From: Nitrospirota bacterium
GTDB taxonomy: Bacteria > Nitrospirota > UBA9217
Length of the DNA stretch: 64,000 nucleotides
Assembly (NCBI GenBank): GCA_963790205.1
Contig: CAWBNQ010000003.1
Location: 96,001-160,000, forward strand
Direction: 5' to 3'
Shown here: in pieces, positions 23,392-39,667 of the stretch
Layout of the letters: each line of letters opens with the position of its first letter
Position numbering within the stretch: position 1 is the first letter of the stretch
Translations under genes and position numbers: made by a program
Notes under the pieces: model-generated
What the model was told of the DNA's origin: nothing
What the model saw: the letters and a program-made list of their open reading frames with translations, nothing else
Database searches by the model: none

Positions 23392-25455
23392 ATGACAGAC
23401 ACTGTTTTCGTAAAACCCGGCATGTCGCCGAAAGAGATCGTAACAGCGGTCCGATCGCTCAAGGGCGTGTGCCTCACGTCCGTGGGCATGCGCGACGCGG
23501 GCCAGTCGGACTTCAAGAACCGCCACCGCATCTACGACCTCAAGACGCTTGCGCCGTACTATAACGGCATGGGTCTGTTCTCCGCAGAGACGCACGGCGG
23601 GGCGCGCTGGCATGTGGGCATCATGAACCGCAGGGAAAGCCCGTTCGAGGAAGTGGCTATCCTTCGGGAGCTGATGCCGAACGTGCTGCAGCAGACGCTG
23701 ATCCGGGAGACGAACCTCTGGGGATACCGTCCGTATCCGAAGAACGTGATCGAGTATGCCGTTGCCCGGGTGGACATCGACGTGTGGCGCTGCTTCTCGT
23801 TCCTGAACGACGTGCGGAACATGCGCACGGTGGCGGAAACGGTCATGAAGCGGGGGCGCTTGTTCGAGCCCACGATCTCTTTCACGGTCGCGGACTGGGC
23901 CACGAACGAGTACTACCTCGGTGTCGTCCGGGAGATGGTGGACCTCTGCGGCGGGATCGACGAGATCGTGCTGTGCATCAAGGACATGGCCGGCGTGGGA
24001 GACGTGACCCGCATCGGGAACCTCATCGACGCCATCAAGCAGAAATATCCGAAGCTCGTGATCAACTACCACCGTCACATTACGGACGGTCTTGCCGTGC
24101 CGGCGTTCCTCTCCGCGGCCAAGGCCGGCGCCGCGATCTTTGACGTGGAAGAGGATTCGCTCGTCCGCTTCTACGGCCATTCTCCGATCCTGGCCATTCA
24201 ATCCATATTCGAGGAGACCGGCATCCCCGTGCATTTGAACAGACCGGATGCCGAGGCCGCTGTCCGGAAGGTGCGCGAATGGATCGGCCATTACGAATGG
24301 GCGGAGTCGCCCTTCAAGGGCCTGGACCACACCGTGACCCGCCACCGCATGCCGGGCGGTGCGTTCCCGAGTTCCTTCGAGCAGGCGGACAAGGGGGACT
24401 TCCTGCATCTCATGCCCGCGATCCTCACGGCCATGTCGCTCTTCAACCGGATCGTCAAGTATTTCGACGTGACGCCCGGGTCCCAGGTCACCTGGGTCAC
24501 GTGCAGCGGCATCGTGAACCGGTACGCAAAGGAGCAGGGCGACCGCGGGGTGAGGCATGTCATCGATCTTTTGACGAAGTTCGTCGAGGAAAAAAAGCAG
24601 GACTTCGAAGCCATGGACAAAGCGGAGCAGGACGAGCTCTTGCAGCTGTTCCGGACCGCGCCGGGCGATTTCAAGAACCTTCTGCTCGGGAACTACGGCA
24701 AACTGCCCGTGGGCTGGCCCGCGGAATGGGTTTACCAGAGCACGTTCGGCGAGGAGTGGGAGGAAAAGATCAGGGAGCGGAAGGAAATATCTCCGCTCGA
24801 CTCCATGCCTCAGGACGACCTCGACAAGCTCCGGAAGGAGCTCCAGGAGAACGTGGGCAGGGACGTGACCGAAGAGGAGTTCATCCTCTATCTCATGCAC
24901 CCCAAGGACGCGCTTGACTATATGGAGTTCCGCGGGAAGTTCGGCGAAGCGCCGCTCGTTCTTCCCACGAACGTCTGGAGAAAAGGCCTTACCCGGCCGG
25001 GAGACAGGGTGGATTTCGAGCACTGGGGCAAGCCCTACTCCATCGAGCTGGTGTCCATCGGGGCGGAGTACGAAGGCGTGATCCACGTGGTCATGCGCGT
25101 GAACAACAAGACCCGGGTCTACTCGGTCGCGACCCCGCGCGCCAAGAAGGCCGAGGTCCGCATGGCAAAGGGCCCGAACAACATCGGCGCGCCGATCAAC
25201 GGCAACCTGTGGCGGATCGGCAACCCCGGCCGCGGACCCGTCAAGGCGGGAGATATCGTGCATAAGGGCGAGGAGATCGCGAACCTCGAAGCCATGAAAA
25301 TGGAAAATGCCATCATCGCGCCTATGGACGGGCAGATCGTCGAGGTCTGCGTCAAGCTCAACGAGACGGTGCAGGAAGGGCAGCTTCTGTTCGTCATTGA
25401 GAAAGCATCGGTCAAGTCCGAGCCGAACGGAACCGGCGGGAGCATCGTGGTGTAA
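23392..25455 (+). CDS. pycB: Carboxyltransferase plus biotin-carrier subunit (pyruvate carboxylase subunit B-like)
   Basis: RDAGQS, IKDMAG, HxH, MPGG, VTPGSQ, biotinylation motif EAMKME. Confidence 0.82.
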   Translation: MTDTVFVKPGMSPKEIVTAVRSLKGVCLTSVGMRDAGQSDFKNRHRIYDLKTLAPYYNGMGLFSAETHGGARWHVGIMNRRESPFEEVAILRELMPNVLQQTLIRETNLWGYRPYPKNVIEYAVARVDIDVWRCFSFLNDVRNMRTVAETVMKRGRLFEPTISFTVADWATNEYYLGVVREMVDLCGGIDEIVLCIKDMAGVGDVTRIGNLIDAIKQKYPKLVINYHRHITDGLAVPAFLSAAKAGAAIFDVEEDSLVRFYGHSPILAIQSIFEETGIPVHLNRPDAEAAVRKVREWIGHYEWAESPFKGLDHTVTRHRMPGGAFPSSFEQADKGDFLHLMPAILTAMSLFNRIVKYFDVTPGSQVTWVTCSGIVNRYAKEQGDRGVRHVIDLLTKFVEEKKQDFEAMDKAEQDELLQLFRTAPGDFKNLLLGNYGKLPVGWPAEWVYQSTFGEEWEEKIRERKEISPLDSMPQDDLDKLRKELQENVGRDVTEEEFILYLMHPKDALDYMEFRGKFGEAPLVLPTNVWRKGLTRPGDRVDFEHWGKPYSIELVSIGAEYEGVIHVVMRVNNKTRVYSVATPRAKKAEVRMAKGPNNIGAPINGNLWRIGNPGRGPVKAGDIVHKGEEIANLEAMKMENAIIAPMDGQIVEVCVKLNETVQEGQLLFVIEKASVKSEPNGTGGSIVV

Positions 25456-25478
25456 GAGGGAGTGTATGCGACGTCATC

Positions 25479-25513
25479 AAGGCCCGGCAGGGAGCATCCT
25501 GCCGGGCCTTTTT
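25479..25513 (+). terminator. Intrinsic terminator after pycB
   Basis: AAGGCCCGGCAGG-gagcat-CCTGCCGGGCCTT followed by TTT. Confidence 0.75.
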
Positions 25514-25519
25514 GTATTA

Positions 25520-25568
25520 TGCATCCTGCATCCTGCATCTTGCATCCTGCATCCTGTGTCTTGCATCG
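25520..25568. repeat. Heptamer tandem repeat (TGCATCC x7, degenerate)
   Basis: tgcatcc tgcatcc tgcatct tgcatcc tgcatcc tgtgtct tgcatcg. Confidence 0.85.
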
Positions 25569-25657
25569 TCTCACCGCCATACCCTGAAAATACCCCATCG
25601 AACTCCTTGCAATTTCCGAAACTCTGTACTATCCTCGTGACGTTGTAACTTTCTTTT

Positions 25658-26077
25658 ATGCCTATGCAGGAACAGAAAATAGAACGCCAGGTCACAGTCG
25701 GCGTATATACCATGCCCTACGAGGCTGACCTCGTGTGGTCACTTCTCGAAGCTTTCGAAATACCGGTCTTCCCCGCGGACTATAACACCATATATATAGA
25801 TTGGCTGTATTCCAACGCCCTGGGCGGAGTAAAACTTCGGGTCAGCGAACAGGACGCAGCCGATGCGCGAGAAGTCATTGCGGGTGCCCTTGCAGATGGC
25901 GAAAAACTCCATCCGACGTATAGCGAGGGCGCATGCCCGCACTGCGGCAATAGGGATACTGCTCCAGTGGTACGCGGTCGAAAATGGGCAATAATTACCT
26001 GGCTCATCTTTATGCCAATTGTCTGGCCTTGGACACGCCTACGATGCTTGTCATGTGGGCACACTTGGCGGGCATAG
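25658..26077 (+). CDS. DUF2007-like protein with C-terminal zinc ribbon and TM helix
   Basis: EA.L..SLLEA..IP, NALGGVKLRV, CPHCG...TM...CLSCGH. Confidence 0.75.
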   Translation: MPMQEQKIERQVTVGVYTMPYEADLVWSLLEAFEIPVFPADYNTIYIDWLYSNALGGVKLRVSEQDAADAREVIAGALADGEKLHPTYSEGACPHCGNRDTAPVVRGRKWAIITWLIFMPIVWPWTRLRCLSCGHTWRA

Positions 26078-26336
26078 TTCGGCCGAATAATATTCTTGCT
26101 TGACAAAGAGTTAAGATGAGAGTAATTCAGAAGTAGGTGAATCAAGAAGGTAGAAGTCGTCGTGGAGCGTTGCAGCGTGCGGGGGGATTGGTGATGACAG
26201 ATTCCTCGTAGCAACGGGTGCACAACGTCCCCCGCTGGGCTCCTTGACCTCAAATAATCAACGTAAGTAACATCGCAGCACCCGTCCCCAAAGTTCTTTG
26301 CGGGCTTGGGGCCGACTTAAGCGATAGGGACATCTA

Positions 26337-29300
26337 ATGCCAAATAGAAATTGGGGCCTCATCACCTCCGGCGCTACTTTTGAGGCACTTGCAACGACCC
26401 TCATCTTCTTCGAGGATCCGAAAGCAGCACTTTTCGGCCGTCGAGGTAAAGATGGCGGACAGGATGCGCGCTCAGGCGATGGATTACGAGTATTTCAAGC
26501 TAAGCACCATGAAGATGGCTCAGCTACTAAGGCAATTGCAGACGCGAAGAGTGAAGCTGCCAAGATCGCAGAATATCGAAAACCAGGACACTTTCGATAT
26601 CTCCAGTGGAAGGGAGTAACACACTGGCGCCTTGTTACCAATGCAGTATTCAATCCCACGGATAGGCAGAGGTGGGATGTCGAGGTTGTTCCTCTCTTCA
26701 TGGCTCAAGGCTTGAACCCCGACTATTGGGAGCGGGCAAACTTAGATGGACTTCTTGACAAGCACCCTGAAGTAGATCGGTACTTCTTCCAGAATGAAAC
26801 GCGTGTTCTTCTTTCTCTTCCAGAGATTCGCGAGCGCTTGCCACAGGAAGACCCTTTTCTAAGGCGTGAAACTCTCACAACATTCCGCGGCCGAGAGGCC
26901 GAAGCAAAGTATGTTCGTTCTTTCCTGTCATCGGATGCCCTGTTCCTGGTTGTTCACGGTGAAGGGGGTATCGGAAAAACACGTCTGCTTGTTGAGGCTG
27001 GAGATGAAATCGCATCCGAGGGAGAGTGGCAAGTCTTTTGGGCGAACGTTGCAAGTATGTCATCCTCATCCACCTGGTTCGACTCCATCGTCCCCGAACG
27101 CACTACCCTATTACTCGTTGATGAACCTGATGATCCGCAGTTGCTTCGCGTCTTATCGGAGCAATTAGGCTCCCGGTTCGGTCGTACGGCAAAATGGAAG
27201 GTTGCGGTTTCTGTCCGCTCACCCAAAAATCCAGTCCTGCGATATTTATTCTCTCCGAGGGTGAAGGAGCGCGTTCAGGAGCTGCCGATAGGTGAACTGT
27301 CAGATGGGGCAGCAGAAGAAATGTGTTTCGACCTTCTTAGCTCCGGCCCTCTCAACAGCAGTCCCAGTGATTGGCGCAAGGATGCTGCTCACAAACTTGC
27401 TGCGCGTTTTTCGAATCGCCCGATCTGGCTTACGCTTGCAGTTCATGTTCTCGAGGTGCACGGAGATCTTGCAAAAGTTCCGGACACGGCTGCAGATTTA
27501 GCAGACCAATATGTAACTGAAATTATCAAGCTTCAGCAGGATGCCAACGCAGATCAGGTTCTTATGTTGCTTCAGTATATAGCACTCCTCGGGACTATAA
27601 ATCGAGAAGACAAAGCAACAATTGAACTGCTAAGAGGGGTCTGCAAAATTGAAAACGATACTGCACTTCTGAAATTATTAGCTGATCTAGTTAAACGACG
27701 TGGTCTCACGCAGCGCGGGGCGGTGCAACGGTTAGTTGAACTCAAACCCGACGTCTTACGGGATCACATACTTCTAAGCTGGCTGTCTGTCGATATCGGC
27801 TATGGTGCCGCTCCGATCCAGCCATCTGATGACGCAAAAAACATTGTAATTGGTGTTCGCGATGCTGTTCTAAAGGGGAGCATCAGCGCATTAGGGCGGA
27901 CTATTCTCACGTCATTGGCGCGAACAGAGTTTCTCCTTAGATTGTCTGGAAAGACTGTTCCTCTGCTGGATCCTTTGTTTGCCGGTATCCTTGCTGGTCT
28001 TGCAGGAACGACCGCGAGCCAACGGCTTGTGATTGCGGAAGTCCTTCAAGATTTCGCCGCGTATCGCCCTGCCGATACTGTCGAAATTAGCCGTGCTCTT
28101 CGATCTTCAACTGTAACCAGTGAAAAGACTGAAAGTTATTTTGGTAGACGCGAGATAGGCCAGGATGACATCGTTATGGCGCTGGCATGGCCTATATTTC
28201 ATGCTGCGATGGGCGCTCAGTCTCAGAGCGAGTGTGAAGTTGTACTGAAAGAACTTTGTTCTCTTGCTGAATTGGAGTCAGAAGTCGGATCGCATCGCAA
28301 AGGTGGCCTGCCTAACGATGGAAAACGAGCTGGTCAGTTAATAGGTCGTACAATAGGTGGTGGCCCACATTTTTCAGCTGATTTTACTGATGCCGCTAGC
28401 ACACTTTCGTTTCAGCTGCTTGAAGATGTCGCTGCCGTACCCGCAACACCCGCTAAAGGATCAGTTATCAAAGAATTGTTGGAGCCTACACTTTCGATTG
28501 AACGACAGCAAACCTGGAGTGAAGGCTACACAGTTCATATCAGCAGGATCATCATTCATCCAAATCATTCGGCTTGGAAGAAGCGAGAAATGGTATTGAA
28601 TCGAGTGAAAGCTATTTTAGCTTCGGAGCAAACACCACCAGCTTCGCGCAGTTTGTTATGGAGCATATTTGCTGAAGCTCACAGAACTGTTAATGTTGGC
28701 ATTAAACAGATCAACTCAGTAGAAATTCAAAAACAATTACGCAAATTATCGCTTGACGATCTTGAGTGGGCCTACCCGGTGCTTGTTCCTCGTAAGGATG
28801 ATCTGGCCGAACTGATGGCAGCGCGCGATTTATGGCACTGGCATTATCGATTTGACAGTGTTGCTGAATTCAAGGAAATAAGCAGCAAGCTAGAGGCTCT
28901 TTACGAGAGTAATAGCCTGTCAGGCGAATTTGAGCCACTCACAAGCCATGATAGATGGGAACAGCAAAGCGCTGCACATGCAGCTAAAGCAACGGCATTG
29001 GCAGCAGATGCTAGTTCATTGAGTATCGAAGATTTTCTATCTCGTGCCATAAATTATTATCGTGGTAATGAAAATGAACTCTACCACCTGTTTGGTGTCG
29101 CGGCAAACCTTGGTGCGCTTGCGGGCACACACAAAACAGTGCGAGATTTTGTACATAAGTTTCTGTCAGATGCGAACCATACTGCACGAACGGATTTTGC
29201 CATTGATGTTGCCGTAAGCTGGATTGCAACAGTGCGACGACAGGATTCTCCTCGTGCAGCTTATGATCTGATTCTCGAATTAATGAGAACATGCGGCAGT

Positions 29301-30359
29301 AATGATCAGAGAATTCGTCTAATACATCGACACTATAATGGGCTCCGTTTAGATTATAGACAAATTGAGGATGCAGAGCATGATCACCTGCGCTCACTCA
29401 GCACATTGTTCTTGGAACACAAGAAGGGGGCTGCATATATACAGGCAATCGGCTGGACATTGAATTACAAGTGGCCCGATCTCCAGGCACTCATCGAGAG
29501 GGTGTTAGACCATGTTGATCATGACCAGCTTGCAGTTTCTGTACGATGTCTTATTGAGACGGCATATTATGCAATTAGGCAAGACACATCACCCCAGCCA
29601 CCTCCAGATGGTCTAGGGCAATGGCTCCTCGATCAAGTACTGCGCTTATCGAAGTTTGATGATCTCGGCTCCAGTATTGATTGGTACATTGAAGATTTGT
29701 TAAATAGGATTGGCAAGGTTCCTGTATCATGGCTTCCGGGAGCACTTGAAAAGCGGCGCGCTATGGAAGCTGCAGATGAATCACGTGTGGTAAGAGCACT
29801 TAGTTATCATCCAAAATTGAGTAGTTTTGTCCGCCCTATTACAGCAGCCGATAAAGATAACCCTGATGCAGCTAGGGCAGTTAAATCCCTTACCAACATG
29901 CTAATTGATAAAACCGTCTTAGGATATTACCTTCCCGAAATACTGCATGATGTTGATCCAGATGGCCTGCTTGTGCCGGACGAGATTGTTTCGCGTGTTG
30001 CAGCGGCAGCAAATCGTGATGAGGTATGGTCTTATGCTAGAGTTGCTGGAACGTACGAGGTTGGAAGCACAAGCTGGCGAACTATAGCGCGGCCAGTCGT
30101 CATCCGTGCAAATAAATCGGAGAAGGCTGAAGAACGACGTGATCTGTTCGTCATTATATTACATAAAGGCATGCGATCGTGGTCCGGCTCACCGGGCCAG
30201 GTTCCGCAATTGTTTATTGATGAAGTAAACACGGCTCGTAACCTTTTAGACTCTGAAACAGAACAATCATTTCGGCCGTTTTGGGAATGGAATTTGGCCA
30301 TTGCAGAATCGGAACTAAAGGCGCAAGAAGAGCAGGCGAAGGAGATGCGTGGCGAATGA
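26337..30359 (+). CDS. Mrr-like restriction endonuclease - STAND NTPase - helical C-terminus (Avs-like antiviral protein)
   Basis: N-terminal FEAL...GKDGGQD...FQAK (D-QxK nuclease), Walker A GEGGIGKT, Walker B LLLVDE, long helical region; AT-richer than flanks. Confidence 0.75.
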   Translation: MPNRNWGLITSGATFEALATTLIFFEDPKAALFGRRGKDGGQDARSGDGLRVFQAKHHEDGSATKAIADAKSEAAKIAEYRKPGHFRYLQWKGVTHWRLVTNAVFNPTDRQRWDVEVVPLFMAQGLNPDYWERANLDGLLDKHPEVDRYFFQNETRVLLSLPEIRERLPQEDPFLRRETLTTFRGREAEAKYVRSFLSSDALFLVVHGEGGIGKTRLLVEAGDEIASEGEWQVFWANVASMSSSSTWFDSIVPERTTLLLVDEPDDPQLLRVLSEQLGSRFGRTAKWKVAVSVRSPKNPVLRYLFSPRVKERVQELPIGELSDGAAEEMCFDLLSSGPLNSSPSDWRKDAAHKLAARFSNRPIWLTLAVHVLEVHGDLAKVPDTAADLADQYVTEIIKLQQDANADQVLMLLQYIALLGTINREDKATIELLRGVCKIENDTALLKLLADLVKRRGLTQRGAVQRLVELKPDVLRDHILLSWLSVDIGYGAAPIQPSDDAKNIVIGVRDAVLKGSISALGRTILTSLARTEFLLRLSGKTVPLLDPLFAGILAGLAGTTASQRLVIAEVLQDFAAYRPADTVEISRALRSSTVTSEKTESYFGRREIGQDDIVMALAWPIFHAAMGAQSQSECEVVLKELCSLAELESEVGSHRKGGLPNDGKRAGQLIGRTIGGGPHFSADFTDAASTLSFQLLEDVAAVPATPAKGSVIKELLEPTLSIERQQTWSEGYTVHISRIIIHPNHSAWKKREMVLNRVKAILASEQTPPASRSLLWSIFAEAHRTVNVGIKQINSVEIQKQLRKLSLDDLEWAYPVLVPRKDDLAELMAARDLWHWHYRFDSVAEFKEISSKLEALYESNSLSGEFEPLTSHDRWEQQSAAHAAKATALAADASSLSIEDFLSRAINYYRGNENELYHLFGVAANLGALAGTHKTVRDFVHKFLSDANHTARTDFAIDVAVSWIATVRRQDSPRAAYDLILELMRTCGSNDQRIRLIHRHYNGLRLDYRQIEDAEHDHLRSLSTLFLEHKKGAAYIQAIGWTLNYKWPDLQALIERVLDHVDHDQLAVSVRCLIETAYYAIRQDTSPQPPPDGLGQWLLDQVLRLSKFDDLGSSIDWYIEDLLNRIGKVPVSWLPGALEKRRAMEAADESRVVRALSYHPKLSSFVRPITAADKDNPDAARAVKSLTNMLIDKTVLGYYLPEILHDVDPDGLLVPDEIVSRVAAAANRDEVWSYARVAGTYEVGSTSWRTIARPVVIRANKSEKAEERRDLFVIILHKGMRSWSGSPGQVPQLFIDEVNTARNLLDSETEQSFRPFWEWNLAIAESELKAQEEQAKEMRGE

Positions 30360-31165
30360 GCAAATCCCTTGAGCAACGACTGCAAGATTCAATACTCGAG
30401 TTTGATGAAATGCACCAGATGTTAAACCGGAAACCGGGGGAGGTACATGCAGATGTCGAAAATGTATTACGAAGTTTTGCCAATTTACGTGACGAAGTAG
30501 CTGGTTTGATTGAGCTTATTGAAATTCGTAAGTCGGCTTTTCGCTTTCTAGATTCTCTTGAAAAGAAAGTGGATGCAAATGATAATATTTCTCTCAATGA
30601 CTTATCTCTAAAATATCACCATGTAAGATTAATCGGTGTGCAAGCTTATATTAGTACCAACTGGGCAATTGCTGACAGGATTACTGGAGTGGTCGGACGC
30701 TTACTATGCACTCCGGAGTCAGGCTCTAATGCATTGAGTCTGGCAAAAATGCCGACATTTGTTAAGCGGGATATTGCGAAGAAAGCGACCGCAGCCATTC
30801 TCGTCCAATCCGTTCGGCAAACCTTCGGGTGGCCGGTCGGGCTTTCATACGCAATTCGCAATCACTTTATTCATGACGGAGCTCAAAGTGGAGGAAAGGA
30901 TTTTTTTGAAGGCACGTCTGCGGTATCAGCTTTTCGGATATCTGATGCCGGTTGGAAGCGGATCGAGGAAAAAGCGACAACTGAATATGGCGTTAGCGAC
31001 TCCTGTCATCGTGCAGGAGCAAGATGGCCCGTTGCACCGAAAGATGATCTTCGAGTAACGTTGCAAGTTTTCGAGCAAGAAATGGATGATGCCCTAGGAG
31101 TTCTTTGGGGTTCCGCATGCCACTCATTACTTGGACATGTAGGTTTTATTCTGGGCGAGGACTAA
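30356..31165 (+). CDS. Putative HEPN-domain RNase
   Basis: ATGA overlap with the STAND gene; helical protein with RxxxxH motif (IRNHFIHDG). Confidence 0.6.
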   Translation: MSKSLEQRLQDSILEFDEMHQMLNRKPGEVHADVENVLRSFANLRDEVAGLIELIEIRKSAFRFLDSLEKKVDANDNISLNDLSLKYHHVRLIGVQAYISTNWAIADRITGVVGRLLCTPESGSNALSLAKMPTFVKRDIAKKATAAILVQSVRQTFGWPVGLSYAIRNHFIHDGAQSGGKDFFEGTSAVSAFRISDAGWKRIEEKATTEYGVSDSCHRAGARWPVAPKDDLRVTLQVFEQEMDDALGVLWGSACHSLLGHVGFILGED

Positions 31166-31306
31166 CATGGGGTGTCACTTCCAGGTCAGCTTGGGAGACG
31201 TTGATACTCAGACTACAAAACGATTGATGGAACCGTATAGGGTCGCGTCTTGAATGTTGTTGACAGAGCATAGATGTTGTAAGAACCCTGCACGAGTAAT
31301 TATCTT

Positions 31307-31954
31307 ATGCATGACACTCTTTTCACAATCGGTTATTCAAACCGGTCAAGCGATGATTTAATCGCCCTTCTCAAACAACACAAGATAACCGCGCTTTGTG
31401 ACGTTCGATCCGCGCCCTACAGCAGCCGCAATCCGCAGTTCAACCGTGAGATATTCAAACAATCACTAAAACTTCATAATATCGAGTATGTATTCCTTGG
31501 TGAGGAACTCGGCGCACGGCCAAAAGACCCGTCATGCTACGTCTCGGGGAAGGCAATCTATGAAAAGATTGCAGGAACGACTTTATTTAAAAAAGGCCTG
31601 GAGCGCGTCAAGCTCGGACTTAAGAAAGGCTACACCCTTGCTCTAATGTGTGCAGAGAAAGACCCGATGACGTGTCATCGAACGATATTGGTATGCAGGA
31701 ATCTCCGCGGACAAGGCGTTGATATTCAGCATATCATCGATGATCAAACCATAGAGACGCAAACTGATCTTGAGAAGCGTTTAATTGCACAATTAAAACT
31801 TCATCCCGATATGTTCAAGGACACCGAGCCAAATACGCTCATCGAACGCGCATATGACGTGCAGGGCGACCGGATTGCGTACGTGGAGAAGGGCGAACGG
31901 GAACCGGATGAAATAGCGGCGGATACGGTGAGAGAAGAGAATGAACACTATTAA
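31307..31954 (+). CDS. DUF488 family protein (long form)
   Basis: FTIGYSN, DVRSAPYS, ELGARP, LMCAEKDPMTCHR. Confidence 0.9.
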   Translation: MHDTLFTIGYSNRSSDDLIALLKQHKITALCDVRSAPYSSRNPQFNREIFKQSLKLHNIEYVFLGEELGARPKDPSCYVSGKAIYEKIAGTTLFKKGLERVKLGLKKGYTLALMCAEKDPMTCHRTILVCRNLRGQGVDIQHIIDDQTIETQTDLEKRLIAQLKLHPDMFKDTEPNTLIERAYDVQGDRIAYVEKGEREPDEIAADTVREENEHY

Positions 31955-32387
31955 GATATATACAATCGGATTCACCAAAAAATCAGCAGAGCAATTCTTC
32001 GGCATACTGATCAAAGCCGGTGTTAAGAAGGTCGTTGATGCGCGTTTGAACAATAGTTCCCAGCTTGCAGGCTTTGCGAAAAAGGAAGACTTGAGATATT
32101 TCTTAAAAGCGCTCGGAAATATCGATTATCATCATACGCCGATTATGGCGCCGACCGGAGAAATTCTTACTGAATATAAGAAGAATAAAGGTGACTGGCA
32201 AATTTACGAGAAGAAGTTTCTGGCGCTCATGGAAGAACGGCGGCTTGAGAATGTTGTAAATCCGGCAGAGCTTGATGGGGCATGTTTGCTGTGCAGCGAG
32301 GATTCACCGAAACAATGCCATCGCCGACTTGTGGCCGAATATCTGAAAAGCAAATGGGGTAACGTCGATATAGAACATCTTATTTGA
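31941..32387 (+). CDS. DUF488 family protein (short form)
   Basis: YTIGFTKKSAEQFF, DARLNNSSQLAGFAK, LLCSE....CHRRLVAE. Confidence 0.9.
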   Translation: MNTIKIYTIGFTKKSAEQFFGILIKAGVKKVVDARLNNSSQLAGFAKKEDLRYFLKALGNIDYHHTPIMAPTGEILTEYKKNKGDWQIYEKKFLALMEERRLENVVNPAELDGACLLCSEDSPKQCHRRLVAEYLKSKWGNVDIEHLI

Positions 32388-32401
32388 CAGGGAGGCCTAG
32401 C

Positions 32402-33097
32402 GTGGATATCATCGTTACGGATTTGACGAGATTCGCAAAGGATGATCTGGTTTGCATAGCGGGCATCGACGTAAAATCCAAGCAGTGTATAAGGCCATTG
32501 CCCTATATCAAGAAAGAGGTTTGCAAGAAGCTGAAGATATTGCCGGGCGCGATACTGGAGGCGAATTTTACAAAACCGCCGAATGTTAATAAACCGCATA
32601 CCGAGGATAGGCACTACAATAAACTTTCATTTAAAGGACCATGCACCTCGGATGAATTTGAAAGTATATTGAAAAGCTCGCTTTATCCCTCGATCAACGA
32701 AGGTTTTAACGGCAAAGTGCCTGCTGGCGCCAAGGTGATCCCTCCTGACAGCCCTCCCTCCAGGTCCATTATCACGCTCAAACTGAAACCTACACAAATA
32801 GAGATCGTCAGAAATGCATTTGACGCCAAGAATCTGCGGCTGAACATTCTTGACAATGACGATCGGAAGTATTCCTATTTGTCGATCACCGATCTCGGTT
32901 TCCACAATTCATTCATTTCGAAAAAAACGGATCCCGATGAACTGAACGAATATGTTCAGGGCCAGAAGAAGCTCTACCTCAGAATTGGTTTGGGTCGTCG
33001 ATATAAGAATCCCACGGACGGGCGAGACGGCTTCTGGATTCAGGTGAATGGGATATATACCTTCCCTGAATTCATGACAAAAGTAAGAACGTATTGA
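32402..33097 (+). CDS. Dual OB-fold-like protein associated with DUF488
   Basis: CIAGID...IRP, PHTED, ITD, IGLGR...VNGI; GGAGG RBS before GTG 32402. Confidence 0.6.
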   Translation: MDIIVTDLTRFAKDDLVCIAGIDVKSKQCIRPLPYIKKEVCKKLKILPGAILEANFTKPPNVNKPHTEDRHYNKLSFKGPCTSDEFESILKSSLYPSINEGFNGKVPAGAKVIPPDSPPSRSIITLKLKPTQIEIVRNAFDAKNLRLNILDNDDRKYSYLSITDLGFHNSFISKKTDPDELNEYVQGQKKLYLRIGLGRRYKNPTDGRDGFWIQVNGIYTFPEFMTKVRTY

Positions 33098-33168
33098 AAG
33101 GCGGCGTCATCGTTGATGTCGGGGGACGACTAGGGGCTGTTGTTGAAATTGCGTTGTGTATGCATATC

Positions 33169-33197
33169 AAGGCCGGAGAGAACCCTCTCGGCCTTTT
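33169..33197 (+). terminator. Terminator-like hairpin heading DsbA unit 1 (homologues at 33700-33729 and 34724-34752)
   Basis: AAGGCCGGAGAG-aacc-CTCTCGGCCTTTT. Confidence 0.6.
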
Positions 33198-33287
33198 GTT
33201 TTTCAGCGCCTGTTTTTGGCAGGGCGGGGGAGTGATATTCTTTACTTATCAACAGCAGCCGTCCGGTCGTTTCCGGGGTGATCCAAT

Positions 33288-33701
33288 ATGAATACAACAA
33301 GTGACAAGATGATCGAGATCATCGAATTTACCGATCCTGTCTGTACCTGGTGCTGGGGCAGCGAACCGGTGCTCCGGAAGCTCGAAACCAGGTTCGGCGA
33401 ACAGGTAAAGATCAGCTACATCATGGGCGGGTTGGTCCAGGACATCACGTCATTCTACGACAGTTATAATGACATCGGCGGCGATCCGGACCGTTCCAAT
33501 AAGAATATTGCCAAGCATTGGGTGGATGCGTCGGCACGTCACGGCATGCCGGTAAAGAGCGAGGGCTTCAAGCTCTTTTCCAAAGAACATCCCTCGACGT
33601 ACCCGCAGAACATCGCCTATAAGGCCCACATCTTAGGGTCAGGTCTCTTTTGTTGCATGGAAGCTTGGCGGGGCATCCTTGAATCTGTAGTTATTTTTTA
33701 A
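33288..33701 (+). pseudogene. DsbA/YjbH-like protein copy 1, truncated after about 113 codons
   Basis: FTDPVCTWCWG; homology to copies 2 and 3 stops at 33626, where the transposase left-end sequence begins. Confidence 0.85.
33630..33658 (+). repeat. Copy of the HUH-element left end (29 bp)
   Basis: ATCTTAGGGTCAGGTCTCTTTTGTTGCAT, identical to 34654-34682 and 36067-36095. Confidence 0.95.
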
Positions 33702-33821
33702 GGCCGGAGGGTGTGCTCTCCGGCCTTTTGATTTTCAGAGCCTGCTTTCGGCATGACGGGGGAGTGATATACTTTATTCATCAACGGCAGCCGACTGGTC
33801 GTCTCCGGGGTATGACTCACT

Positions 33822-34706
33822 ATGAATACAACAAGTGACAAGATGATCGAGATCATTGAATTTACCGATCCTGTCTGTACCTGGTGCTGGGGCAGCGAAC
33901 CGGTGCTCCGGAAGCTCGAAACCAGGTTCGGCGAACAGGTAAAGATCAGCTACATCATGGGCGGGTTGGTCCAGGACATCATGTCATTCTATGACAGTTA
34001 TAATGACATCGGCGGCGACCCGGAACGGTCGAACAAAAACATTGCCAAGCATTGGGTGGATGCGTCGGCACGTCACGGCATGCCGGTAAGGAGCGAGGGC
34101 TTCAAGCTCTTTTCCAAAGAACATCCCTCAACGTACCCGCAGAACATCGCGTATAAGGCCGCACAGCTGCAGGACCAGGCGCTCGCAAACAAGTTCCTTC
34201 GGCGTATCCGGGAAGCGTCGGCTGCCGAGGCGAGGCAGACGAACACGACCGAAGTGCTGCTGGAACTGGCATCGGAAACAGGGCTCGATATTGCCCGCTT
34301 CCTCGATGACTTTACCCGTGGTCCGGCGCAAAAGGCCTTTGAGCAGGACCTTGCGATCACGGCCAAATACGGGGCACGCGGGTTTCCTTCATTTTTACTC
34401 AAATATGGGGAGAAAGAAATGGTGATCCGCGGGTACAAGCGGTATGAAGAGTTCAAGGCGCTGATCGGGCATCTGTCGGGCGGAGAAATACAGGAACTAC
34501 CGGTTTCGGCTGATGAAGGGTCCATCATGGCATTTATAATCCGGTATGGTTCCGTGGCGCTGATCGAGATCCGGATGACATTCGACCTCGGCGATGACGA
34601 ACTGAAGACCGTGATCGACTCGCTCTTGAACAAGCAGCTGGTCCAAAAGCGACATCTTAGGGTCAGGTCTCTTTTGTTGCATGGAGGCTTGGCGGGGCAT
34701 CCTTGA
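33822..34706 (+). pseudogene. DsbA/YjbH-like protein copy 2, C-terminally truncated (about 277 codons retained)
   Basis: Homology to copy 3 stops at 34651 (CAAAAGCG|ACATCTTAGGG); lacks the CDPATGVC tail; may still be expressed. Confidence 0.75.
34654..34682 (+). repeat. Copy of the HUH-element left end (29 bp)
   Basis: ATCTTAGGGTCAGGTCTCTTTTGTTGCAT. Confidence 0.95.
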
Positions 34707-34843
34707 ATCTGTAGTTATTTGCTAAGGCCGGAGGGCGCGCTCTCCGGCCTTTGATTTTCAGCACCTGCTTTTGGTAGGGCGGGAGAGTGATATACTTTAT
34801 TTATCAAAGGCAGTTGCTGGCCGTCTCCGGGGTATGATTCACT

Positions 34844-35755
34844 ATGAACAAATTAAGTGACAAGATAATCGAGATCATTGAATTTACCGATCCTGTCTGT
34901 ACCTGGTGCTGGGGCAGCGAACCGGTGCTCCGGAAGCTCGAAACCAGGTTCGGCGAACAGGTAAAGATCAGCTACATCATGGGCGGGTTGGTCCAGGACA
35001 TCACGTCGTTCTATGACAGTTTTAACGACATCGGCGGCGACCCGGACCGGTCGAACAAAAACATTGCCAAGCATTGGGTGGATGCGTCGGCACGTCACGG
35101 CATGCCGGTAAGGAGCGAGGGCTTCAAGCTCTTTTCCAAAGATCATCCCTCAACGTACCCGCAGAACATCGCGTATAAGGCCGCACAGATGCAGGACCAG
35201 GCGCTCGCGAACAAGTTCCTCCGGCGTATCCGGGAAGCGTCGGCTGCCGAGGCGAGGCAGACGAACACGACCGAAGTGCTGCTGGAACTGGCATCGGAAG
35301 TAGGGCTCGATATTGCCCGTTTCCTCGATGACTTTACCCATGGTCCGGCGCAAAGGGCCTTTGAACAGGTCCTCGCGCTCACGGCCAAATACGGGGCGCG
35401 CGGGTTTCCTTCTTTTTTACTGAAATATGGAGAGAAAGAAATGCTGATCCGCGGGTACAAGCGGTATGAAGAGTTCAAGGCGCTGATCGGGCATTTGTCG
35501 GGCGGGGAAATCCAGGAACGTCCGGTTTCCGTGGATGAAGGGTCCATCATGGCATTTATAACCCGGTACGGCTCCGTGGCGGTGATAGAGATCCAGATGA
35601 CCTTCGACCTCGGCGATGATGAACTGAAGACCGTGATCGACTCGCTGCTGGGCAAGCAGCTGATCCAAAAGCGCGAAGCAGGCAACGGTTATTTCATCTC
35701 GGCAAAGGCCAGCGCCGCAGCGTGCGATCCCGCAACCGGCGTGTGTTCGATATAG
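34844..35755 (+). CDS. DsbA/FrnE/YjbH-like thioredoxin-fold protein, copy 3 (full length)
   Basis: CTWC active site, GFPS cis-Pro motif, C-terminal wHTH-like region and CDPATGVC tail. Confidence 0.88.
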   Translation: MNKLSDKIIEIIEFTDPVCTWCWGSEPVLRKLETRFGEQVKISYIMGGLVQDITSFYDSFNDIGGDPDRSNKNIAKHWVDASARHGMPVRSEGFKLFSKDHPSTYPQNIAYKAAQMQDQALANKFLRRIREASAAEARQTNTTEVLLELASEVGLDIARFLDDFTHGPAQRAFEQVLALTAKYGARGFPSFLLKYGEKEMLIRGYKRYEEFKALIGHLSGGEIQERPVSVDEGSIMAFITRYGSVAVIEIQMTFDLGDDELKTVIDSLLGKQLIQKREAGNGYFISAKASAAACDPATGVCSI

Positions 35756-35819
35756 GGTCGGAGCGTGCGCATCCCTCATGGCGTTTGCGGAATGCGTTTG
35801 CTTTTTCGCCGCTGAAGCA

Positions 35820-36000
35820 GTCCCATGCGAAAATTTAGGAGTGCGATTGAGTCCGAGGGTTAAGCATTTCGGATGTCCGAAGACCGCAGGTCAAGTTTCC
35901 GAAATGTACCGAGGACGATTGAGCACGACGTGAAGAATTTTCGCCGGGTGCCCTTCTTTCGGTTACCTTTCTTCGGGCAAGCAAGAAAGGTGACAAAGAG
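35820..36000 (+). repeat. About 180-bp structured non-coding repeat, copy B
   Basis: Collinear with 10425-10602; ends in hairpin GTTACCTTTCTT-cgggcaagc-AAGAAAGGTGAC. Confidence 0.85.
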
Positions 36001-36066
36001 AATGTATGGAATTTTGAGGGGGCCGTCTAACCCACCTCCCCCAACCCTTCCTTGTCAAGGAGGAGA

Positions 36067-36998
36067 ATCTTAGGGTCAGGTCTCTTTTGTTGCATTTTGT
36101 CGTTTTCTCTGCTATCCTTGCCTTATGTCCCGCCCCCTCCGCATAGAATACGCCGGCGCTGTCTACCATGTGACCTCCCGAGGCAACGAGAAGAAGCCGG
36201 TCTTCAAGGATGATCACGACCGGGAAGCGTTCCTCAACACCCTTCGACACGTCAACAAACGGTATAACTGGATCTGCCACGCCTATTGCCTCATGACCAA
36301 TCATTACCACCTGCTCATCGAGACGCCGGAGGGAAATCTGTCCATCGGCATGCGGCAGCTCAACGGTGTGTACACGCAGCTCTTCAATAAGCAACACGGC
36401 AGGAACGGTCACTTGTTCCAAGGCCGCTACAAAGCGATCCTGATCCAGAAGGACAGCCACCTGCTGGAAGTATGCAGATATGTGGTGCTGAATCCGGTGC
36501 GGGCCAATATGGTGGAAGCACCGGAAGCATGGAAATGGTCCAGCTATCTTGCCACGGCGGGAAGGGCGAAGGCGCATCCCTCTCTCACGACGGAGTGGGT
36601 GCTCGGTCAGTTCAGCGGGAAGCAAGGAAAGGCGGAAAGCGAATACCGGCAGTTCGTCAAGTGGGGGATCGGTGAGCAGACGATCTGGACCGCTGTGCGG
36701 GGGCAGGCGCTTCTGGGCGAGGACGACTTTGTCGATACGCTGGTGGACCATCTCCAGAAGAAGAAGGACATCCCCGATATCCCGCGGAGCCAGCGATATG
36801 CAACACGACCGGACCTGCCAAAGCTGCTGCCCGATACAATAAAGAACGATCAGCGGAAGCTGAAGAAAAAGCTGCATGAAGCGGTGGAGAAATACGGTTA
36901 CCATCAGAGCCAGCTTGCGCGGCACCTGGCGGTCCATCGGTCCACGATCAGTCGCTGGCTGCAGGAACAGGAGCGTGCAACAAAAGAGACCTGACCCT
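36067..36998 (+). mobile_element. HUH (Y1/RAYT-like) transposase element bounded by perfect 23-bp inverted repeats
   Basis: AGGGTCAGGTCTCTTTTGTTGCA (36072-36094) and TGCAACAAAAGAGACCTGACCCT (36976-36998); no target-site duplication visible. Confidence 0.9.
36125..36994 (+). CDS. REP-associated-type tyrosine (Y1 HUH) transposase with C-terminal HTH
   Basis: MSRPLRIEY.GAVYHVTSRGN, HUH motif NHYHLL, GHLFQGRY, RYVVLNPVRA, WSSY, HTH (YHQSQLARHL...RSTISR); stop codon lies inside the right IR. Confidence 0.93.
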   Translation: MSRPLRIEYAGAVYHVTSRGNEKKPVFKDDHDREAFLNTLRHVNKRYNWICHAYCLMTNHYHLLIETPEGNLSIGMRQLNGVYTQLFNKQHGRNGHLFQGRYKAILIQKDSHLLEVCRYVVLNPVRANMVEAPEAWKWSSYLATAGRAKAHPSLTTEWVLGQFSGKQGKAESEYRQFVKWGIGEQTIWTAVRGQALLGEDDFVDTLVDHLQKKKDIPDIPRSQRYATRPDLPKLLPDTIKNDQRKLKKKLHEAVEKYGYHQSQLARHLAVHRSTISRWLQEQERATKET

Positions 36999-37009
36999 TG
37001 GAGGGGCGC

Positions 37010-37765
37010 ATGGCGCGAATATTCATAACCGGTTCCGCCGACGGTCTTGGCCTCATGGAGGCGCGGCTGCTGGTCAGCCAGGGCCACCAGGTCGTGCTGC
37101 ATGGACGGAGCCGACAGCGGGCAGATGAGGCGCTTTCCAAGGTCCCTGGTGCGCTCTCCGCGGTTGCGGGCGATCTGGCAAGCATCGCGGAAACGAAGTC
37201 CCTTGCGGACCGGGTGAACGAGCTGGGTCCTTTCGATGCCGTGATCCATAATGCAGGCGTCTATCTCGTGCCCCATGGCAGCCGGACCGTCGACGGCCTG
37301 CCGCAGATCTTTGCCGTGAACTCCCTGGCCCCCTATATCCTGACCTGCCTGATCAAGCGGCCGAAGCGCCTGATCTACACGAGCTCTGGTCTCCATCGAA
37401 GCGGCGATGCGAGCTTGAACGACCTGACGCGGGATGCATCGAGCGCCTACGCGGATTCGAAGCTGCACAACGTCATCCTTGCCTTTGCCGTTGCCCGCAA
37501 ATGGCCCGACGTACTGTCCAATGCAGTGGACCCCGGCTGGGCAGCAACGAAGATGGGGGGGCGGGGAGCCCCGGTCAGTGTCGAGGAAGGGGCGCGGACG
37601 CAGGTGTGGCTGGCAGCGAGCCGGGACAAGGAAGCCCTGGTCTCGGGAAGATATTTCCATCATCTACAACCCGGGAGCTGTCACCCGGCTGCGGCGGATC
37701 GCGTGGTGCAGGAAAAGTATTTTTCAGAATGCGCCCGCTTGTCCGGGATCGCGTTCCCTGATTAG
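37010..37765 (+). CDS. SDR family NAD(P)-dependent oxidoreductase
   Basis: ITGSADGLG, HNAG, YADSK, VDPGW. Confidence 0.92.
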   Translation: MARIFITGSADGLGLMEARLLVSQGHQVVLHGRSRQRADEALSKVPGALSAVAGDLASIAETKSLADRVNELGPFDAVIHNAGVYLVPHGSRTVDGLPQIFAVNSLAPYILTCLIKRPKRLIYTSSGLHRSGDASLNDLTRDASSAYADSKLHNVILAFAVARKWPDVLSNAVDPGWAATKMGGRGAPVSVEEGARTQVWLAASRDKEALVSGRYFHHLQPGSCHPAAADRVVQEKYFSECARLSGIAFPD

Positions 37766-38005
37766 GGGGGAAATCTCACCGGGAACGTTGGTCAACCACT
37801 TTAGCCCTCTCCCAAAAGGGAGAGAGTTGGGTGAGGGGGGACTTTCCCGGGTGTAACAATATTTACTTCGTTCGTATCAGACCCAGGCGTCCGCCCCGAG
37901 ACGGACGATCCCACAAAATACTCCGCTTTACTTTTTCCCGGCAATTGTGCATAATACAAATCCATTACTCATTAACGGACCGGTAAGGTTATCAGGAGGT
38001 TTCCC

Positions 38006-39667
38006 ATGGCATCAGTGAACAGACTGCCCCGTTCGCCCTGGAGGGCGATGATCGAAAGCGCGTTTTACGCAAATTCGGTCCGAAAGACCAGCATGGCCGA
38101 GCTCTACAAGCTTGCGCTCAAACAGCCTGAGGTAATGGCCACGGCCCATCCTTTTTACAAGCCGTCCCAATACGGTTTGCCGAAGGACGCAAAAGTGCTC
38201 GTCTCGAACGACGGCGGAATCGTGGGCCGGACCGCCCGGGCCAGGAGGCTTGTGCGCGAGATGGGCAAGGACCGCGACAAATACCTTCGCATCCTGGGAG
38301 AAGTCACCTTTCAGCTCAACAAGCGCGAAAGCCTGTGGCTCGAGGCCATCGTAGGACTCCACAAAGACTTCATGGTCAAGGCCCATATCCTGAGCCCGGC
38401 CACGGACGCAAAGAACATGTTCGACTGGGGATGCAACTTCACACCCTGGATGAAGCCGTGGAGCGAGGCATATAAAAAATCGAAGAAGCTCGATGAACCG
38501 GACATCCTGGTGATAGCAGATCCCGAGTGGTCAGATCCGGAATTCCCGAGCGGGCTGGTGATCATCGACGAGGAGGAGAACTGCATCGCCATCCTCGGGC
38601 TGCGCTATTTCGGCGAGAGAAAGAAGGGCACCTTGACGCTCGCCTGGACCATCGGCGTGCGGCTCAACATGGTGGCCTGCCACGGCGGCATCAAGACCAT
38701 CGGCAATTACCCGCCCGTGGCCGTGTTCGGGCTTTCCGGCTCCGGCAAGTCGTCACTTACGAACAGCCTCGACCACGACGGCCTGCTCAAGAAGAACGAA
38801 AAGGTCACCGTGATCCACGACGACGCGTTCCTGATCGGGCTTGATGAAAATCTGACGGTAGCGCTCGAGCCCTCCCTCTTCGACAAGACCGATGCCGTCA
38901 AATTCCGCGACCCCATCATCAAATACTTCTATTCGGCCCAGAACGTGGCGGTGACCGACGTCGGGAACGGCAAGCGAGAGATCGTCGGCGAGGACATCCG
39001 GAACGACAACGGCCGGTGCATCAAGTCCCGCGACATGTTCAGCATAGCCGATTCCTGCAGCCGGCCCGGACAGCTCATCTGGCTCCAGAAGGACCAGTCC
39101 CTGCCGCCGGTGATGAAGGTGGCCGACAAGGGCCTGGCGGTCGCCATGGGAGCGTCGCTCTCGACGCTTCGCGCCAAGGGCGTGGAAAACGTTCCCAAGG
39201 AGGAACTGGCGAAGCTCGTGATCGAGCCCTTTGCCAACCCCTTCCGGGTCCATCCGCTCATGGAGGACTGCCGCCAGTTCCTGAAGCTCTTCAAGCTCGG
39301 CACGGAGTGCTTCATCATGAACACGGGACACTTCGGCGTGCCCGGCGAGGAGCTCAAGGTCCCCAAGGAACTCTCCCTGTCCATCCTGACGCAGATGGTG
39401 CGCGGCAGGATCGAGTGGCGCGAGTGGAAGTCCTTCCCGGGTCTTTTCCTGCCCGCGAACGGCATCGACCTTTTCGGCTCGGACTACGACAAGAAATTCA
39501 AACCGTCCCGGAACCCCGAGTATCTCCAGTTCCTCCGCAACCGGATGCAGGACCGCATCACCTTCCTGTCGAACAAGCGCGACATCGAGCGCGACATGGA
39601 GAGCGCGTTCATCGACCCGCTCGTGGCCGCGAGGACGGTGATCGACAAGATATTGAACCCGATATAA
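38006..39667 (+). CDS. pckA: Phosphoenolpyruvate carboxykinase (ATP)-like protein
   Basis: YFGERKKG, CHGG, FGLSGSGKS, IHDD, NGRC, ANPF, MNTG. Confidence 0.8.
   Translation: MASVNRLPRSPWRAMIESAFYANSVRKTSMAELYKLALKQPEVMATAHPFYKPSQYGLPKDAKVLVSNDGGIVGRTARARRLVREMGKDRDKYLRILGEVTFQLNKRESLWLEAIVGLHKDFMVKAHILSPATDAKNMFDWGCNFTPWMKPWSEAYKKSKKLDEPDILVIADPEWSDPEFPSGLVIIDEEENCIAILGLRYFGERKKGTLTLAWTIGVRLNMVACHGGIKTIGNYPPVAVFGLSGSGKSSLTNSLDHDGLLKKNEKVTVIHDDAFLIGLDENLTVALEPSLFDKTDAVKFRDPIIKYFYSAQNVAVTDVGNGKREIVGEDIRNDNGRCIKSRDMFSIADSCSRPGQLIWLQKDQSLPPVMKVADKGLAVAMGASLSTLRAKGVENVPKEELAKLVIEPFANPFRVHPLMEDCRQFLKLFKLGTECFIMNTGHFGVPGEELKVPKELSLSILTQMVRGRIEWREWKSFPGLFLPANGIDLFGSDYDKKFKPSRNPEYLQFLRNRMQDRITFLSNKRDIERDMESAFIDPLVAARTVIDKILNPI

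Follow-up and report, generated by a model that had tools for sequence, protein, structure and literature searches.

How does a bacterial chromosome come to hold three copies of one gene in a row, the first two cut short almost exactly where copies of a transposase end begin? We asked this of a 64-kb stretch of DNA (hereafter, the window) from a Nitrospirota bacterium (UBA9217; assembly GCA_963790205.1, contig CAWBNQ010000003.1, positions 96,001-160,000 of the forward strand), in which dsbA-like genes alternate with ends of a TIRtron, an element that carries a TIRYT transposase between terminal inverted repeats (TIRs). The explanation we favor, held with about even confidence and drawn from sequence comparisons, is that the array consists of three diverged dsbA-like alleles built by one-sided capture at TIRtron ends. 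Two observations, divergence of the copies while they still functioned and recurrence of the one-sided layout in related genomes, make it likely that the enzyme joins the DNA of relatives onto these ends and thereby builds gene arrays.

The dsbA-like array and its TIRtron

The array is organized as follows (window coordinates and strand):

33122..33160, + strand: head of unit 1, an end of the GGGGACGTTG type that is degenerate and stutters briefly
33169..33287, + strand: terminator-like hairpin and promoter/leader, copy 1
33288..33627, + strand: dsbA/FrnE-like allele 1, cut at codon 113
33628..33657, + strand: junction 1, 8-nt tag ACATCTTA and orphan 23-bp end
33658..33821, + strand: 41-nt spacer, hairpin and leader, copy 2
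33822..34651, + strand: dsbA-like allele 2, cut at codon 277
34652..34681, + strand: junction 2, 8-nt tag ACATCTTA and orphan 23-bp end
34682..34843, + strand: spacer, hairpin and leader, copy 3
34844..35755, + strand: whole dsbA/FrnE-like gene, 303 aa (Thioredoxin_5, DSBA)
36065..36094, + strand: tag and left TIR of the TIRtron
36125..36994, + strand: TIRYT transposase, 289 aa, with HUH motif (N59 H60 H62), catalytic Y119 followed by NP, and C-terminal helix-turn-helix (HTH)
36976..36998, - strand: right TIR, overlapping the transposase stop codon; its outer tag contains the ribosome-binding site of the next gene, a short-chain dehydrogenase/reductase (SDR)

A 29-mer is present three times in direct orientation (33630, 34654 and 36067) at 100% identity, with spacings of 1024 and 1413 bp, just as the initial annotation of this locus had stated. 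The third copy is, as claimed there, the left end of the transposase element, to which we add the inverted right end at 36976-36998. The 23-bp core of the 29-mer has four copies in the 4.34-Mb genome (allowing up to 4 mismatches), all at the array locus. Homology to the full-length copy 3 stops at about 33627 in copy 1 (113 codons) and at 34651-34652 in copy 2 (277 codons), 2-3 nt before the 29-mer, in agreement with the annotated breaks. Both breaks meet the 8-nt tag (33628 and 34652), which sets the start of the shared junction sequence earlier than the 29-mer does. The annotated succession of end, spacer, hairpin, leader and new dsbA start holds for junctions 1 and 2, with their 41-nt spacer, but not for the head of unit 1, which has no copy of the array end and begins with the degenerate end of a second TIRYT family; intact versions of this head precede the same leader in L008/L219 and L012/L220. 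The units do lengthen toward the transposase here (113, 277 and 303 codons), as had been noted, but this order has a 1-in-6 probability by chance and it fails in a comparable array at locus L171.

No 3' remainders of the dsbA-like gene were found beyond the right TIR, so the array cannot be the product of plain insertions of the element into dsbA. The outer left and right flanks give no sign of a target-site duplication, as they share at most TA, itself part of the end consensus. The annotated combination of a fixed boundary at the end, a variable boundary opposite and no target duplication is supported. The dsbA-like gene is patchily distributed (5 of 64 genomes of the family, in 5 genera); the other four genomes carry a single copy each, and the orthologs of other genera are 84-92% identical.

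The three array copies are 93.3%, 91.7% and 89.9% identical in pairwise comparisons, contain no stops or indels, and have pN/pS ratios of 0.10, 0.18 and 0.34 (p of 1e-4 to 2e-4 under neutrality). Copies 1 and 2 differ by 10 synonymous and 3 non-synonymous changes, copies 2 and 3 by 26 and 24, respectively; an allele tree did not resolve. A fresh duplicate made in place is expected to be identical to its source, or to drift neutrally once cut. Because the differences are mostly synonymous, the copies appear instead to have diverged as functional alleles under purifying selection, and simple amplification by the enzyme would thus be insufficient to produce the array. This qualifies the annotated idea of enzyme-driven amplification, deletion or capture: the HUH family does seem to take part in duplications, deletions and probably cargo capture, but amplification cannot alone explain diverged copies.

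The TIRtron itself is a 927-bp unit with perfect 23-bp TIRs (36072-36094 and 36976-36998). Judged by its HUH/Y-NP residues, HTH, inverted repeats and repeat motif, it belongs to the TIRtron/TIRYT type described by Di Nocera et al. (2013; PMC3733652) and to TnpA-Y1 subclass 2.1 (Quentin et al., 2018; PMC6006769), given in the available part of the latter as the second largest RAYT-like group, found in 14.9% of strains. The transposase scored 95.8 bits against NF047646 (cut-off 80), and N59, H60, H62 and Y119-N123-P124 are invariant across six aligned proteins. Pfam recognized only Y1_Tnp, together with a weak HTH_23 match at residues 255-281 (E of 2e-4; 21.4 bits, under the cut-off of 24.6), and a sequence search of the PDB returned 0 matches at an E of 0.01. 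The GGGG[AT][CG]A[CG] motif is represented at the repeat by AGGGTCAG, which fits 7 of 8 positions, and the ends have no stable fold (z from -0.9 to +1.3). The closest relatives of the transposase are from Nitrospirota. Seven Y1_Tnp matches were found in the genome of this bacterium, five of which form a second TIRtron family about 71% identical to the first; long ladders of 9-16 nt stutters stand at two sites with ends of that family (C1:543212-543330 and C1:381376-381430). Inverted end pairs about 67-80 bp apart, as in L240, L237 and elsewhere (e.g., G051:C291:33147-33227), are candidate gene-less miniature TIRtrons.

Four other classes were considered and found not to fit. A REPtron would have GTAG-tagged hairpin repetitive extragenic palindromes (REPs) in many copies, whereas the ends described here are not hairpins and have only four copies in the genome. 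The annotated kinship with IS91/ISCR-type elements fails on the enzyme, which is Y1 and not Y2, and on the presence of TIRs. An integron is made unlikely by the lack of an IntI among nine proteins scanned across 26337-39667 and by units that end inside genes. The IS200/IS605 family, characterized by subterminal hairpins and no inverted ends (PMC3333891, available part), does not accommodate inverted ends free of hairpins.

A tag-end-spacer-hairpin module similar to that of the array heads an SDR gene in L014/L209, and the hairpin and promoter leader (33169-33287, 33700-33821 and 34724-34843) also precedes other genes in relatives; the SDR gene in L209 is apparently leaderless. The leader may be a regulon module held in common and moving together with TIR ends. 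A promoter scan scored below shuffle level. The spacer was also considered as a small open reading frame (ORF), with 14 codons to the stop in both copies, and dropped when a DNA query retrieved no homologous gene in the 64 family genomes.

Duplications and diverged alleles outside TIRtron ends

Among 197 distinct ends from the loci of relatives and the genome of this bacterium (one row with an N run, L148, was dropped), 33 carry exact tandem duplications in which the second copy starts 6-13 nt outside GGGTC. The first may stop at any point between the tag and a position 291 nt inside, and lengths range over 8-291 nt. Among 3000 random sites, 12 had such a restart when units of up to 300 nt were allowed; for inner sides, with a unit limit of 40 nt, the count was 2 of 193. 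A 904-bp duplication at locus L221, part of the replicate described below, is 100% identical and has an offset of 11. Information in the outer flank extends no further than about -10. The modal bases there at -9 to -5 are the reverse complement of GGGTC (n = 172 ends), a match suggestive of guide-like pairing between tag and end. Orphan ends gave a mixed and clustered signal for lagging-strand bias, as measured by GC skew.

The join outside the left tag also varies between strains. In sequencing runs X1 and X2 the TIRtron and the start of the SDR gene are nearly identical to the window (4 differences in 1152 in X1) and the sequence joined outside the left tag differs; in run X4 the dsbA stop meets the left end via seven other bases. 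The same locus therefore has a variable outer join at its left tag.

Some diverged copies show the same polarity. We collected duplicate pairs that were 80-97.5% identical, at least 100 bp long and within 8 kb of each other from 89 loci and the whole genome of this bacterium, and found an end at the predicted side in 14 of 105 such pairs, compared with 0 at the two control sides (4 of 45 and 0, respectively, in this genome alone). The positives represent 13 distinct junctions, 11 of them outside the array, with offsets mostly of 8-12, and come from this genome, from five further genomes of the family and from locus L086, itself perhaps part of one of these genomes. When the search was run forward from the ends, 11 of 188 were positive; 9 of 600 control sites were as well, 7 of them with a duplication merely running through the point. 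An excess of synonymous differences marks 9 of the 13 junctions: an hsdM-like gene (9 synonymous versus 0 non-synonymous), recQ (16 versus 11), the transposase gene itself (11 versus 2), both window junctions, pycB and three unnamed ORFs.

The layout at these junctions, with a truncated diverged allele abutting the tag and the whole gene further inside, is new here. Locus L171 holds a three-copy array like that of the window (about 52 codons, then a shorter piece, then the whole gene), and in L166, L167 and L171 genes for PIN, MazF, nucleotidyltransferase, HEPN, DUF5615 and Fic proteins surround co-oriented ends. At C14:189995-193700 of this genome, a 246-bp 5' piece (93.5% identical) lies outside an end and the whole gene 3.2 kb inside, with small toxin-antitoxin-like genes and an insertion sequence (IS) between them. 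The layout at locus L211 would fit a putative homologous anchor opposite a non-homologous joint. We regard genome G046 as the most telling case for capture, as far as sequence can tell. There, the same pycB-PEPCK locus that holds the array appears in mirror form, with a pycB 3' piece 88% identical to the whole pycB 3.3 kb inside. One side of this piece runs into PEPCK without an end, and its opposite side abuts a tag of 10-12 nt plus a degenerate end. Third positions account for 29 of its 44 mismatches, and a pre-existing tandem pycB is an unlikely origin.

A proposed capture route and its rivals

From the ends, tags, break positions, offsets, polarity, divergence and recurrent layout observed, and from the HUH chemistry established for E. 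coli TnpA-REP (a 5'-phosphotyrosine, a free 3'-OH, and an attacking 3'-OH that resolves the complex), we infer the following route. TIRYT would nick the GGGTC strand about 8-11 nt outside the end and stay linked to the end-bearing 5' side, and the linked 5' end would be joined to the free 3' end of DNA incoming from a relative, with a predicted anchor on its other side formed through ordinary homologous recombination. One nick could end in any of three ways, according to the attacking 3'-OH. If this belongs to the nick itself, an attack after extension would yield an identical restart duplication and one after resection a deletion outside the end; a foreign strand would place donor cargo and a truncated donor allele before the resident end, with the resident gene kept. 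At the array, a first capture would have set allele 2 before allele 3, and a second the putative defense block and allele 1 before allele 2. Any TIRYT that recognizes the end could act in trans, and the donor could also be a paralogous locus of the same cell, as is possible for L086. ComEC and DprA are encoded in this genome, as they are in 10-11 of 14 control genomes. More tentatively, TIRtrons might be sedentary capture machines, with dispersed ends as programmed acceptor sites at which the Y1 enzyme would ligate the 3' end of half-recombined foreign DNA, making site-directed what is otherwise a rare illegitimate joint. In this way, and with neither an integrase nor attC sites, integron-like arrays of toxin-antitoxin and defense genes would grow at hot spots of the chromosome.

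An origin wholly in cis, which we consider unlikely, would begin with nick-primed full-length tandem duplicates that diverged while functional, subject to gene conversion, and end with resection-and-rejoin deletions outside the tags that cut copies 1 and 2. Identical restart duplications of up to 904 bp and variable deletions outside the left tag at the array locus supply the events needed; units 2 and 3 have tag, end and spacer in common; and between copies 2 and 3 there are only 3 synonymous differences within codons 1-113 compared with 23 in codons 114-277, a distribution that fits conversion. The different head of unit 1 and the single copies in the other four genomes with a dsbA-like gene argue against such an origin, as does the need for pycB, recQ and hsdM to have stayed duplicated in tandem for a long time, at distances of kilobases, in other genomes.

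We judge it improbable that, in the reading nearest to the initial annotation, capture proceeded free of homology, through end-headed single strands with a variable 3' end that were displaced and then joined in at another end's nick, with the enzyme responsible for both joints as in one-ended ISCR or Helitron movement. An end does lie at or close to the start of most truncated copies (units 1 and 2, L171, L183, L086 and C14), and the ends are clustered in one orientation with toxin-antitoxin and defense cargo between them. Such a process leaves unexplained, however, the frequent match between the cut gene and a gene further inside, and no end directly adjoins the pycB, recQ and hsdM-like pieces on the far side.

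An assembly chimera, in which strain variants of one locus were set in tandem, is very improbable, despite a metagenome-type assembly with 3.97% contamination. The four runs examined, as contigs (X1-X4; 20 of the 21 runs listed contain only part of the stretch, the best share being 0.40), contain several alleles of the locus and leave the array unspanned; the DUF488 operon upstream of it has no cover in X1 and X2, which we did not use as evidence. But mis-joined alleles fall in register and would not create two new non-homologous joints at an 8-nt tag, the tag rule is seen in many other assemblies, and the array lies in the interior of a 1.09-Mb contig. That the enzyme is a bystander, with host repair at fragile or protein-bound ends making the duplications and the homology-facilitated illegitimate joints, is scarcely credible given the strict one-sided polarity, the narrow 6-13 nt offset and ends that form no stable hairpin, even if host-made joints build similar arrays in Vibrio type VI secretion system (T6SS) loci (PMC5361080, available part) and the literature found holds no biochemical data for any TIRYT.

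Several points weigh against capture as we propose it. In a prospective replicate of 60 new regions (856 kb, 89 ends), the 21 diverged pairs divided into 4 at the predicted and 2 at the control side, and the 5 near-identical pairs into 2 and 1. Its only clean cases were L221 and L266 (94% identical, offset 10), and L266, the only diverged one, had no synonymous excess in the two frames examined. Diverged captures are therefore uncommon, a few per hundred ends. Four of the 13 polarity junctions carry no purifying signal, and in L166, L171 and C14 the better of two frames was chosen. Junction 2 taken alone resembles a restart duplication, with the same tag and head on both units, and no fixed dinucleotide was seen at the restart site among the 33 ends. 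None of the contigs from X1-X4 spans the array or was shown to cross junction 1 or 2. The regions were picked around ends, the genomes are kin, and the comparison included no conspecific pair from before and after an event; the nick and the role of the enzyme are deduced from sequence. The enrichment of truncated genes just outside ends, proposed as a check in the initial annotation, amounted to a non-significant trend: a Pfam domain is cut at the tag of 13 of 165 well-scoring ends versus 0 of 38 control-repeat ends (p of about 0.06-0.09), after exclusion of rows L247, L279 and L195, in which the gene is intact and the motif match was put down to chance.

Ten of these 13 cut genes belong to mobile elements (transposases, integrases and a group II intron reverse transcriptase), in both gene orientations; cut mobile-element genes were noted at ends in L224, L162, L259, L161, L223, L233 and L094. 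The ends may trim neighboring mobile DNA, or the hot spots may simply be rich in it.

Accessory setting and known systems

The array is part of an accessory block (25455-38006), a 12.5-kb insert between pycB and PEPCK, which are about 0.4 kb apart in genomes G077 and G024. All five main-type ends of the window fall inside this insert, and GC content drops to 0.45-0.51 across 26-33 kb. The block also contains:

26203..26232, - strand: end of the second TIRYT family (GGGGACGTTG type), left-facing, near the left edge of the block
26337..31165, + strand: low-GC cargo, a 1340-aa STAND-like NTPase (AAA_16 and nSTAND_NTPase5, both under cut-off) and a 294-aa ORF of no known family
31229..31262, + strand: tag and orphan end of a related TIR subtype, oriented like the array ends, heading the DUF488 operon
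31307..33097, + strand: DUF488-DUF488-dual OB operon (PADLOC candidate PDC-M45 B and C)
35820..36064, strand not assigned: repeat of about 190 bp resembling a MITE (a miniature transposable element with inverted repeats) and a cut REP-like hairpin, in a strain-variable stretch (matches on C1, C3, C6, C8 and C10)
37010..37765, + strand: SDR oxidoreductase

The GGGGACGTTG-type end brackets a distant TIRYT gene as an inverted pair in locus L220. The NTPase and the 294-aa ORF are likely defense genes. The NTPase (26337-30359) has an N-terminal region that matches no Pfam, NCBIfam or PADLOC family, and is likely an undescribed defense protein. In genome G059 the dsbA-like gene directly precedes the SDR gene, with no TIRtron between them. 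The MITE-like repeat (35820-36010), which has an internal hairpin, recurs at no fewer than 8 other sites in the genome (at least 8) and in many copies in relatives, often beside dsbA-like and SDR genes. A 7-bp periodic repeat of the heptamer type lies behind pycB (25500-25570).

Integrons gather precise cassettes into co-oriented arrays of toxin-antitoxin and defense cargo at a hot spot. The array is like them in its co-oriented toxin-antitoxin and defense cargo and unlike them in having units cut at variable points. The IS91/ISCR elements use Y2 enzymes with oriIS and terIS and move along with their cargo. They have in common with the array the HUH chemistry, the lack of target duplication and one fixed and one variable boundary; the array differs in its Y1 enzyme, its inverted ends and its dsbA-TIRtron-SDR gene order, which is retained in a strain 7.6% diverged. 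If the capture role is true, TIRtrons would give accessory genes a further way into genomes, in addition to integrons and ISCR, and would account for variable defense hot spots that have no integrase. An activity that ligates arbitrary 3' ends on single strands, as programmed by sequence, would, if true, also be useful as a tool.

The published TIRtrons (PMC3733652; PMC6006769) match ours in their RAYT-like HUH/Y enzyme with a C-terminal HTH, inverted repeats near GGGGWSAS and orphan ends dispersed singly or in groups. The available parts of these accounts treat anatomy only; the outer tag, one-sided duplications, cargo arrays, putatively captured alleles and the proposed mechanism belong to the present analysis. 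Despite its size, subclass 2.1 has otherwise no function assigned in the accessible literature (PMC6006769, available part), and capture, if true, would supply one. The names TIRYT and TIRtron occurred in only 2 works, and we found no paper on duplication or capture at TIRtron ends, in a search from which subscription journals and supplements were largely absent; relative to the literature found the restart duplications are new. The initial annotation knew of no such description for the family, which does not stand for the element, a known TIRtron/TIRYT (Di Nocera et al., 2013; Quentin et al., 2018), nor for nick-primed amplification, already modeled for TnpA-REP; the proposed site-directed capture of diverged alleles is the new part.

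For E. coli TnpA-REP, Ton-Hoang et al. (2012; PMC3333891, Fig. 7B, available part) propose that bacterial interspersed mosaic elements (BIMEs) are amplified through a nick whose 3'-OH is extended and then attacks the Tyr-5'P, and add that 3' degradation may bring variation; an added oligonucleotide resolves the covalent complex (Corneloup et al., 2021; PMC8266576, available part). The REPtron/BIME model thus resembles ours in its nick away from the repeat, 5'-phosphotyrosine, 3'-OH extension or degradation, and rejoining. It differs in its unit, a hairpin REP or BIME tens of bases long that is guided by GTAG and cleaved at CT, whereas the array ends are not hairpins and the units reach kilobases and include diverged gene alleles. 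The orphan arrays of T6SS immunity and Rhs genes (Kirchberger et al., 2017; PMC5361080, available part) are proposed to grow by homology-facilitated illegitimate recombination, as the TIRtron array would on our route, through a homologous anchor and a non-homologous joint, with resident genes kept and truncated remnants left behind. Their illegitimate joint is rare and unprogrammed, whereas that of the TIRtron array has a fixed position next to a transposase end and so hints at the enzyme as its maker.

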